In this document: positions 26,469-29,079 of the stretch, piece by piece | Layout: every line of letters begins with the position of its first letter | Position numbering within the stretch: the stretch's first letter is position 1 | Source of the DNA: an uncultured Gemmatimonadales bacterium | GTDB taxonomy: Bacteria > Gemmatimonadota > Gemmatimonadetes > Gemmatimonadales > GWC2-71-9 | DNA length: 64,000 bases | Direction: 5' to 3' | NCBI GenBank assembly: GCA_963695555.1 | Contig: CAVOGR010000001.1 | Location: forward strand, 32,001-96,000 | The notes under the pieces: model-generated | The model's database searches: none | What the model saw: only the letters and a program-made list of their open reading frames with translations | Told to the model about the DNA's origin: nothing | Translations under genes and position numbers: made by a program

Positions 26469-28064
26469 ATGAGCCAACCGTTCGATACGATCGTCATCGG
26501 CGCCGGGGTCAGCGAGCTGGTTGCCGCTAATTATTTGGCGAAGGCCGGACAACGGGTGCTGGTGCTCGAAGAACACGACGAGTTGGGTGGGGTACACGTG
26601 ACCGAGGAAACCATCTCCGGTTTCCGGTTCGATACCGGTGCCAGCGACATCGGATACTGCAATCCGCAGATCATTCAGGACCTCGAGCTCGTGAGACACG
26701 GGCTCGACATTCTCTCGGTCGAACCCACTGTCTTCTCGCCGGTAGAGAACGGAGACGGGCTCCTGCTCGGCAAGGGTGCCGACACGGTGGCCGCCATCGC
26801 GCGCCTGTCGACGGTGGATGCCAGCAAGTGGCTGACATTCAGCGAACGCATGGCTCGGCTGGCGCAGTTCCTCTGGTTGCTCTATAGCGAGGCGCCCCCG
26901 TTGCCGACCAGCAAGGATCGGAACGACCTGCTGGCGCTTCTCGGTATCGGTCGCCGGCTCCGTGGGCTCGGCAAGGTCGGCATGCTCGAGTTCCTGCGAA
27001 CCGTCCCGATGCCGGTGGCGGACCTCCTGGACGACTGGTTCGAGAACGATGCCCTGAAGGGAACCCTCGGCGCTGCCGGCGTGTCGCACATCTTCCAGGG
27101 CCCCAAGTCGGCGGGCACGGCCTTCGTGATGCTCCATCACCTGGTGGGACAGGGTGCCGGCGCGGTCCGTTCGAGAACCGTCCTCCGGGGTGGGGTCGGC
27201 ATGCTGGCGGCCGCACTCGCCCGTGCGCTAACGGAAAGGGGCGGCGAGCTCCGCACCGGCTGCGGCGTTGAGCGGATTCAGGTTCACACAGGCCAGGTGC
27301 GCGGCGTCGTGACACGGGGCGGTGAGGAGATACCCGGCACGAGGGTCGTGTGTGGCGCCGATCCGAAGCGGACGTTTCTGGAGTTGGTCGATCCGGTGCA
27401 TTCAGACCCGGAGTTTCTCCGGCAGATCCAGCACATCAAATTGCATGGCAGTGCCGCCAAGGTGAACCTGGCGCTGGGAGAATTGCCTGATTTCGGCTGC
27501 CCCGAAACGCATCTCCGGGGGACAATCTCGATCGCCCCGAGCCTCGAGCACCTGGAGCGCGCGTACGACGATGCGAAGCACGGTCGTATTGCTCGGAATC
27601 CCTACCTCGACGTATCGATCCCGTCGTTGACCGACCCGAGCTTGGCCCCGCCAGGCAAGCACGTCATGTCGGTGTGGATGCAGTACGCTCCCTATCGGCT
27701 TCGCGACGGCTCGGCATGGGACTCGCACACCCGTGAAGCACTGGGCAAGCAGGTGATCGAGACGCTCGCGCGTTATGCACCCAATCTTCCCGGCGCGATC
27801 ATCGACCGGCAGGTGCTCACCCCTGCGGACCTGGAGGCGCGGTTCGGCCTCACCGAGGGTCACCTGTACCAGGGCGATTTGACGCTGGATCAGATCTTGT
27901 TCATGCGGCCGGTGCCCGGCTGGTCGCGCTATGCGACCCCGATCGATGGTTTGTTGCTCTGTGGTGCCGCGACCCACCCCGGAGGCGGAATCACGGGCAT
28001 GTCCGGGTATCTGGCAGCCCGTCAGGTGTCGAGGCCGTCCAAAAAACGCCCGGTCCCGTCCTAG
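26469..28064 (+). CDS. Phytoene dehydrogenase-like FAD oxidoreductase, subunit 2
   Basis: Paralog of the upstream gene (LERAYDDAK, GLTEG, THPGGG); ATG 26469; Rossmann motif GAGVSE. Confidence 0.9.
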   Translation: MSQPFDTIVIGAGVSELVAANYLAKAGQRVLVLEEHDELGGVHVTEETISGFRFDTGASDIGYCNPQIIQDLELVRHGLDILSVEPTVFSPVENGDGLLLGKGADTVAAIARLSTVDASKWLTFSERMARLAQFLWLLYSEAPPLPTSKDRNDLLALLGIGRRLRGLGKVGMLEFLRTVPMPVADLLDDWFENDALKGTLGAAGVSHIFQGPKSAGTAFVMLHHLVGQGAGAVRSRTVLRGGVGMLAAALARALTERGGELRTGCGVERIQVHTGQVRGVVTRGGEEIPGTRVVCGADPKRTFLELVDPVHSDPEFLRQIQHIKLHGSAAKVNLALGELPDFGCPETHLRGTISIAPSLEHLERAYDDAKHGRIARNPYLDVSIPSLTDPSLAPPGKHVMSVWMQYAPYRLRDGSAWDSHTREALGKQVIETLARYAPNLPGAIIDRQVLTPADLEARFGLTEGHLYQGDLTLDQILFMRPVPGWSRYATPIDGLLLCGAATHPGGGITGMSGYLAARQVSRPSKKRPVPS

Positions 28065-28103
28065 CGCTTCGGTCCACGCACAACTCCAAGATCCAACATA
28101 CGG

Positions 28104-28709
28104 TCAACCGCCCTGGGCTCTGGATTCGTCGCCCCAGGGCGGAATGAAGTCCTCGGACTCGACGCCGAGCGCGTCAGCGATCCGGGTGATGTAGTTGAAG
28201 TAGGCGATGACCTGGGTCGCGTCGTGGATGGCGGTGTCATCGAAACCATGGCTCCGCAGGCCGTCGACGTCCGCGGGCGTCATATGGTGCTGGTCGCGCG
28301 TCAGCTTGGCGGCGAATTCGCACAGGGCCCGGTCGGCGACCGCAAGCGGCGCCGTGCGCCAGTTTCTGACAACGGCATGGACGAAGGCGTCGGCCTCGGC
28401 GGCCTTCTCGTACTCCTCGGCGACCTCGGCACGGAGGTCGTGCGCGTGCGCCTGAATTCAGTAATGGCAGCCCAGCTCGGCGGAGACGGCCACAGCCAGG
28501 AGTTCGCGCTGGGCCCGGGTGAGTGGGGAGCGACCGAACATGATCGCCGCATAGACATCCATGCTGGCTTTCATGATTCGCGGGTTGAGGCTCATGATTT
28601 GGACGATGTGCCACACGCGTCCAGCCCGCTTGATGGCCGCGTCGAACTGTCGTTTGAGCGGGCCCTCCGCGTCCCCAACGTCGATCTGGGAAATCCAGGG
28701 CATTGGCAT
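28104..28709 (-). CDS. AhpD/carboxymuconolactone-decarboxylase-family peroxidase-like selenoprotein (Sec at in-frame TGA 28458-28460)
   Basis: Read-through gives RELLAVAVSAELGCHY-U-IQAH (AhpD E-x11-CxxC-x3-H) and continues in frame through ALCEFAAKLT and QVIAYFNYITRIADALGV to TGA at 28104; SECIS-like hairpin follows the UGA. Confidence 0.85.
28421..28440 (-). promoter_or_regulatory. Putative bacterial SECIS element
   Basis: mRNA CGACCUC-CGUGCC-GAGGUCG; stem starts 17 nt after UGA, loop 24 nt after, with G-U in the loop. Confidence 0.7.
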
Positions 28710-28842
28710 ACGTCCAGGCTGGTGTGCGGTGCTTGTGGCCGGGGCTCACGGTCTTCAGATTCAATTCACCCGGTTTTCACCCGCTCCTGTGCTTATTAGT
28801 CTTGGGAGTGTGTGTAGTCTAACCATGTGGCAATGAGCTGAC

Positions 28843-29079
28843 ATGTCAACTCACGACACGCCCGCGACTTACACGAGAGAAGAGGCGGCGGTCATTCGGG
28901 CCGAGGCGCTGGACGGCGGTAGTCCAATCTGTCCCCGCTGCAACACGGCGCTGATCCTCCGTACTCCCGTAGCCTTGGACGAGATAACCGTCCAGGAAAT
29001 CTCCTGCCCGATGTGCCACCGCTGCGTGATCCTTCGGGAGGGAGAATTCGGGATCCGGAAACGGGGGGTCAAGGGGTAG
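28843..29079 (+). CDS. Small zinc-ribbon protein
   Basis: CPRC...CPMC pairs; 78 aa; upstream of the kinase cluster. Confidence 0.65.
   Translation: MSTHDTPATYTREEAAVIRAEALDGGSPICPRCNTALILRTPVALDEITVQEISCPMCHRCVILREGEFGIRKRGVKG

Follow-up and report, generated by a model that had tools for sequence, protein, structure and literature searches.

The window analysed here is a stretch of 64,000 nucleotides from an uncultured Gemmatimonadales bacterium, in which the minus strand between positions 28107 and 28709 forms one frame of 201 codons, interrupted solely by a TGA at 28458-28460 (residue 84). A second, terminal TGA stands at 28104-28106, and the full coding sequence, which we describe below as that of an AhpD-like selenoprotein of the TIGR01926 family, therefore occupies 28104-28709 (minus strand, 201 codons plus the terminal TGA). 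Under translation table 11 the same DNA yields an ORF of only 83 residues (28458-28709, minus strand), whose C-terminal end, ...SAELGCHY, is followed directly by the internal TGA; past this codon, 117 further codons (residues 85-201) continue in frame, reading IQAHAHDLRAEV...WGDESRAQGG. When the frame is read from the ATG at 28709 with TGA as selenocysteine (U), there is no stop besides residue 84 until the terminal TGA. A sequence-only reading of this DNA had described the short ORF ending in GCHY-TGA and the 117 open codons behind it, and both are confirmed, as is the frame for its expected protein of about 200 residues (201 codons, reduced by table 11 to the 83-residue stub) that standard gene callers would split or miss.

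The same reading held that the downstream half has no start codon near the TGA, and a scan for table-11 starts (ATG, GTG or TTG) in this frame found none there: the nearest one 3' of the internal TGA, an ATG at 28283 (residue 143), comes 59 codons later, which rules out a separate downstream gene beginning near the TGA. At the other end of the gene, translation starts at the ATG at 28709, with the ATG at 28703 as a possible alternative, because most orthologs begin with MPWI or MAWI. A scan of positions 27900-29000 for promoter and terminator consensus sequences found none.

In the read-through protein the motif E69-x11-C81-x2-U84-x3-H88 is present, and the TGA stands, just as had been claimed, exactly at the second cysteine of the AhpD motif E-x11-C-x2-C-x3-H. 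The first redox residue, Cys81, is encoded by a TGC at 28467-28469 (minus strand) in an invariant alignment column, and presumably serves as the resolving cysteine for the second such residue of C81-H-Y-U84, the putative selenocysteine U84 encoded by the conserved TGA at 28458-28460 (minus strand).

The neighbours of the gene are an oxidoreductase of the FAD/amine-oxidase type (convergent), a Ser/Thr kinase containing TPR repeats and an ORF of 78 aa (divergent), and no ahpC or peroxiredoxin gene adjoins it at this locus. The divergent ORF (28843-29079, plus strand) contains two C-x2-C pairs (CPRC...CPMC) and is 57-95% identical in same-genus loci; its sole Pfam match, CoiA_N, lies below the cut-off. 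The neighbourhood as a whole is conserved just within the genus (loci L022/L042, L023/L041, L024 and L026), apart from scattered weak matches, and was rejected as a functional clue because it is shared within same-genus loci only. Given this restriction to the genus, and with no adjacent peroxiredoxin, the genomic context supports no specific partner or substrate.

Family assignment and predicted fold

For the Pfam and NCBIfam searches, cysteine was put in place of selenocysteine. The read-through protein matches the CMD domain (PF02627) with 45.3 bits and the NCBIfam model TIGR01926, "peroxidase-related enzyme", with 129.3 bits against a curated cut-off of 81.8; this last match spans residues 4-186, corresponding to profile positions 1-176 of 178. 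A search of the whole genome with TIGR01926 recovered the same gene (121.4 bits, with one TGA inside the match). Three other models stayed below their cut-offs, namely AhpD proper (TIGR00777, 28.9 bits against 191.95), the AhpD-related CFYUT (seleno)protein (NF041238, 68.8 against 175) and the YciW-related (seleno)protein (NF053654, 23.7 against 310).

Among solved structures, the top sequence matches are 2pfx, 3c1l and 6k40 (E-values from 2e-22 to 4e-21), the first two being uncharacterised peroxidase-related proteins and the third an AhpD-like protein from Deinococcus radiodurans. Their motifs, CFYC, CYYC and CVYC, respectively, align to CHYU of the present protein, with the second cysteine falling in the U84 column. 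An AlphaFold2 model, built with a 32-row alignment of read-through orthologs, is all-helical with nine helices (pLDDT 93, pTM 0.89), and a Foldseek comparison with 2pfx, 3c1l, 6k40, 2prr and 2oyo gave TM-scores of 0.78-0.88. The gene product is an AhpD-like, CMD-fold protein of the TIGR01926 family, and the gene at 28104-28709 shows every testable defining feature of the AhpD-like CxxU selenoprotein family.

It is not AhpD sensu stricto, since its TIGR00777 score falls short of the cut-off, the fold match to AhpD is weak and no ahpC gene is adjacent. The AhpD of Mycobacterium tuberculosis (1gu9/1knc; TIGR00777) has the same E-x11-C-x2-C-x3-H motif and CMD core, with an E-value of 0.0068 over residues 63-114 and TM-scores of just 0.43/0.50 to our model. 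The genome also holds, outside the window (G000:C5:26145-26753), a second CMD gene with two PF02627 matches in a 216-aa frame free of internal stops, which is probably a Cys-type paralog.

Conservation of the in-frame TGA

In a six-frame search of 61 related genomes, matches were found in 31, and nearly all of the strong ones contain exactly one TGA. The translated loci of 20 relatives (one of them, L031, from the unpublished genome G018) have C-x-x-U at the same place in all 20 cases, over a range of protein identity from 95% down to about 31%. Additionally, a scan of one genome per species returned 391 stretches encoding relatives, the best 80 of which were analysed. In these best 80 of 391 loci the TGA occupies the selenocysteine column without exception (80/80), and the records are labelled as Gemmatimonadales or Gemmatimonadota, classes of Chloroflexota, Acidobacteriota and Actinomycetota, that is, at least four phyla. 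The two sets overlap slightly, as L022 and L023 lie on the same contigs as L042 and L041 (two of the 80 are within the 20). The motif E-x11-C-x2-U-x3-H is whole in all of the best 80 of 391 loci and in all 20 loci of the relatives.

Protein identity in the best 80 of 391 loci is 62-95% on either side of the TGA, and the true stops of these frames are TGA in 35, TAG in 34 and TAA in 10; the contig of the remaining one ends before a stop. Six columns of the 32-row alignment, E69, C81, U84, H88, G155 and D158, are invariant, and the near-invariant ones lie mostly downstream of the TGA. Judged from these alignments, the conservation of the TGA is far beyond chance, and a conserved TGA column combined with conserved sequence downstream of it excludes a nonsense mutation, a split gene or a sequencing error as its origin. 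The column proposed for checking thus holds TGA in the orthologs (80/80 of the best of 391, and 20/20) and cysteine in 2pfx, 3c1l and 6k40; a TAA or TAG there, which would have spoken for an ordinary stop, was seen in none of the homologs examined.

Independent sequence for this position is available from public sequencing runs, two of the 21 listed containing half or more of the sampled words. Four runs were compared with the window as contigs. A 687-nt contig from X1, an RNA-library run (whose contigs are no proof of transcription), matches 28168-28800 at every position but 28599, and a 328-nt contig from X2, which may be the source sample, covers 28293-28620 with zero differences. The TGA is unchanged in both, so that the TGC or TGT reads named in advance as counter-evidence did not appear in either contig; runs X3 and X7 cover the stretch incompletely.

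Selenocysteine machinery of the genome

The genome searched comprises 3.57 Mb in 14 contigs and is 87% complete. It contains a tRNA-Sec at C10:18082-18175 (70.7 bits; the gathering score is 47), which ARAGORN also calls as tRNA-SeC with anticodon tca, together with selA (505.1 bits, without an internal stop), selB (286.2 bits, rising to 318 when the C-terminal piece is included, without internal stops) and selD (367.4 bits). The selD gene (G000:C7:793584-794507, locus L018, outside the window) itself has an in-frame TGA in its N-terminal region, ...LSHGAGUACKLG..., from which the SelD of this genome appears to be a selenoprotein too. All four components sought in the genome are therefore present and, with the TGA-bearing selD, they bear out the proposal of selenocysteine use in this organism. 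At G000:C1:634434-634907 (locus L014, also outside the window), just downstream of tRNA-like matches at C1:634011-634180, the selB model also matches a translation-GTPase-like sequence, again with one TGA inside; in this case the alignment may merely start upstream of the true start codon.

Among the 61 related genomes, selA scores above the cut-off in 54, and it is found in 25 of the 27 genomes that have a TGA-bearing match, the exceptions being G033 (an assembly in 550 contigs) and G054 (85% complete). Within the window, 19 of the 49 stop-to-stop frames of at least 300 codons end in TGA, and since the AhpD-like gene itself ends in TGA too, this codon is otherwise an ordinary stop.

A candidate SECIS hairpin

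Downstream of the UGA, and within the coding sequence, a candidate bacterial SECIS hairpin lies at 28421-28440 (minus strand), formed by the arms CGACCUC and GAGGUCG around the loop CGUGCC. Its stem has 7 bp, its apical loop has 6 nt with G at the second position, and the stem begins 17 nt 3' of the UGA, the usual distance from UGA to SECIS in bacteria being about 16-37 nt. A 28-nt piece with the hairpin alone folds with -11.7 kcal/mol, an energy equalled or bettered by 10 of 200 shuffles. In the 71 nt from the UGA, the minimum-energy structure differs from the hairpin (z +0.73, with 153 of 200 shuffles folding as well), and it was comparison of homologs, not the folding of a single sequence, through which the hairpin was detected.

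In this comparison, 97.3% of 553 cells (from 79 distinct sequences) are paired, against 21-45% in controls slid by 1-3 columns. At the third pair (columns 24-37), 66 of the 79 sequences have C-G, 11 have U-A and 2 are unpaired; its 3' change turns Val into Ile, which means that the switch is not silent drift. The alignment thus shows compensatory changes in the putative hairpin. Its arms double as codons (for D-L and E-V/I), so that part of the conservation may be a coding constraint. In TGA-bearing homologs that are more distant (L031-L040), hairpins of quite another sequence occur about as far from the TGA, such as ACGGAG...CUCCGU, ACGCAGA-GUU-UCUGCGU and GCCGCG..CGCGGC. An Rfam scan of 28000-28800 with E-values up to 10 returned three chance-level matches and no SECIS family, which is weak evidence, as Rfam is not known to contain a general SECIS model for bacteria. 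Short pieces of contigs from runs X1 and X3, otherwise unlike the window, match just about 50 nt of it (28417-28470), with both ends loose, as would fit orthologs that are conserved in nucleotide sequence around the active site and the hairpin.

Homologs and their annotation

In a large protein collection the relatives are mostly C-terminal pieces of 110-120 aa (P0016, P0018, P0020-P0026, P0028 and others). Three of them were aligned (P0018, which is on the contig of L060, P0024 and P0028), and each begins at the codon directly after the TGA. From these records, public annotation appears to split this family systematically.

Full-length homologs with W, R or G at this position are rare (P0003-P0015, P0027, P0035 and P0059 are the proteins concerned). 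Of 18 near-full-length database proteins, 11 have W in the selenocysteine column, 2 have R, 1 has G and 2 have C (both of the TxxC form, at 48% identity), and the region is missing from the other 2. Each of W, R and G has a codon that differs from TGA by one base. In P0007, a W form and the one non-Cys homolog covered by a check of the codon in DNA, the codon is genuinely TGG (L121:601-1179, on a 61-kb contig), and the idea that W in the full-length homologs is an artefact of gene calling under code 4 is therefore wrong for this protein.

At the level of the phylum, 121 Gemmatimonadota genomes were sampled. TIGR01926 has 66 single-row matches above its cut-off in them, of which 61 contain one TGA in frame, counted here by presence (the position of the TGA column was verified for the 20 and the 80 loci); one further gene, split over two rows, also bears a TGA. 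On these counts, selenocysteine forms appear to dominate the family in Gemmatimonadota. The sampled genomes often have two or three TGA-bearing TIGR01926 paralogs.

Discussion

Based on the frame, its conservation and the machinery of the genome, the region 28104-28709 (minus strand) is very probably a single gene for an AhpD-like selenoprotein of the TIGR01926 family, about 200 residues long, in which UGA codon 84 specifies selenocysteine. In the mechanism that we propose, this UGA would be recoded during translation, with SelB, loaded with Sec-tRNA(Sec), recruited by the short hairpin inside the coding sequence whose stem starts 17 nt past the UGA. The earlier proposal that UGA is read as selenocysteine is supported by the conserved TGA, the candidate hairpin, the selenocysteine machinery and the CxxC homologs.

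The alternative that survives best is that the UGA is read as one of the standard amino acids (Trp, Cys or Arg, by near-cognate decoding), or mostly terminates translation with rare read-through. The selenocysteine call is drawn from sequence, the column is occupied by W, G or R in some full-length homologs (one of them with a true TGG), and the hairpin is short and departs from the minimum-energy fold in a longer context, all of which leaves room for such a reading. We nevertheless regard it as improbable, given that the position is that of the catalytic cysteine of the CxxC centre in the solved homologs, that tRNA-Sec, selA, selB and selD are all in the genome, that the hairpin shows compensatory changes, and that TIGR01926 with CxxU is a listed selenoprotein family (PMC13188914).

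Still less credence can be given to a pseudogene, in which TGC or TGT of a once Cys-coding AhpD-like gene would have mutated to TGA, leaving an 83-residue fragment or no product at all. The frame is indeed broken under table 11, and public annotation treats the relatives as fragments, many of them as the C-terminal pieces of 110-120 aa described above; however, the TGA keeps to the same column in 80/80 (best of 391) and 20/20 loci at 31-95% identity, most of the invariant and near-invariant columns lie downstream of it, and the genome has the machinery to read it. As for a sequencing or assembly error, or an alternative code in this organism (TGA as Trp or Gly), a bare in-frame TGA is all that speaks for it, and it is next to inconceivable in view of the same TGA in contigs of two public runs and in orthologs from many assemblies, of the 19 in 49 long frames (and the gene itself) that stop at TGA, and of selA and selB genes without internal stops.

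With UGA codon 84 taken as selenocysteine, the predicted redox centre is C81-x-x-U84 with E69 and H88 on either side, which matches the catalytic E/C/C/H set of AhpD in all four positions. In the M. tuberculosis enzyme, the equivalent of U84 is the second cysteine, Cys133, which is the nucleophile and is served by a His-water-Glu relay. By analogy, U84 would be the attacking nucleophile, and the selenenylsulfide that it would form with C81 would be reduced by an external dithiol. The protein may therefore act as a peroxide- or disulfide-reducing oxidoreductase, a role to which we give about an even chance; its substrate and reductant are likewise suggested by analogy. The closest characterised comparison is DR1765 of D. 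radiodurans (6k40), homologous over residues 16-183 (E-value 4e-21) and superimposable on our model with TM-scores of 0.82/0.88, an rmsd of 2.1 Å and 33% identity; its redox motif is in the same place, with a cysteine (CVYC) where the present protein would have selenocysteine. A DR1765 mutant is reported to be sensitive to H2O2, with complementation depending on the CxxC cysteines (PMC8945050). Other thiol or selenol chemistry on the CMD fold, such as dehalogenation of the Bmp8 type, may apply instead: the debrominase Bmp8 (6ohi/6ohj) and other CMD-fold enzymes share the fold class (TM-scores of 0.70-0.75, 18-19% identity), and Bmp8 is a reminder that this fold extends beyond peroxide chemistry.

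AhpD-like CxxU selenoproteins had been mentioned as already reported, and this is borne out by the literature, as far as the entries cited here go. The Sargasso Sea metagenome yielded 27 such sequences, in COG2128 (PMC1088965), the GOS metagenome has 299 selenoproteins against 902 Cys homologs for AhpD-like 1 (PMC2398784), a table in a 2026 review has the entry "AhpD-like protein, TIGR01926, CxxU" (PMC13188914), and BSepDB has a family page for AhpD-like selenoproteins (PMC13326102). From what these sources give of the family, the present gene shares with it the TIGR01926 model, the CxxU motif and an in-frame UGA followed by a small hairpin. There is no difference in kind, and the closest named relatives of the present genome are labelled Gemmatimonadales. 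The family being on record since 2005, as these entries indicate, the gene adds a member to it and little that is new. Judged by titles and abstract openings, a literature search returned no dedicated paper on the selenoproteome of Gemmatimonadota.

A stronger claim is that the ortholog group with the signature C-x-Y-U-x-Q-A-H-A-H-D-L-R is an obligately selenocysteine-dependent AhpD-like lineage, for which cysteine is no substitute. It is suggested by the TGA in 80/80 of the best loci of 391 across at least four phyla, by the lack of a Cys form among the close full-length homologs aligned, and by the TGA in 61 of 66 single-row TIGR01926 matches in the 121 genomes of the phylum; even so, we consider it rather doubtful. 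Should this hold, the clade would offer a natural setting for asking which chemistry needs selenium over sulfur, and Gemmatimonadota would be unusually selenocysteine-dependent for this family.

For the annotation of these genomes, the finding amounts to a correction, as a conserved redox enzyme would be hidden behind an 83-aa stub or behind split C-terminal proteins. For the organism, it establishes, at the level of its genes, the use of selenocysteine, with a SelD that is itself TGA-bearing. The wider point is how strongly the TIGR01926 family appears to be encoded with selenocysteine in Gemmatimonadota.
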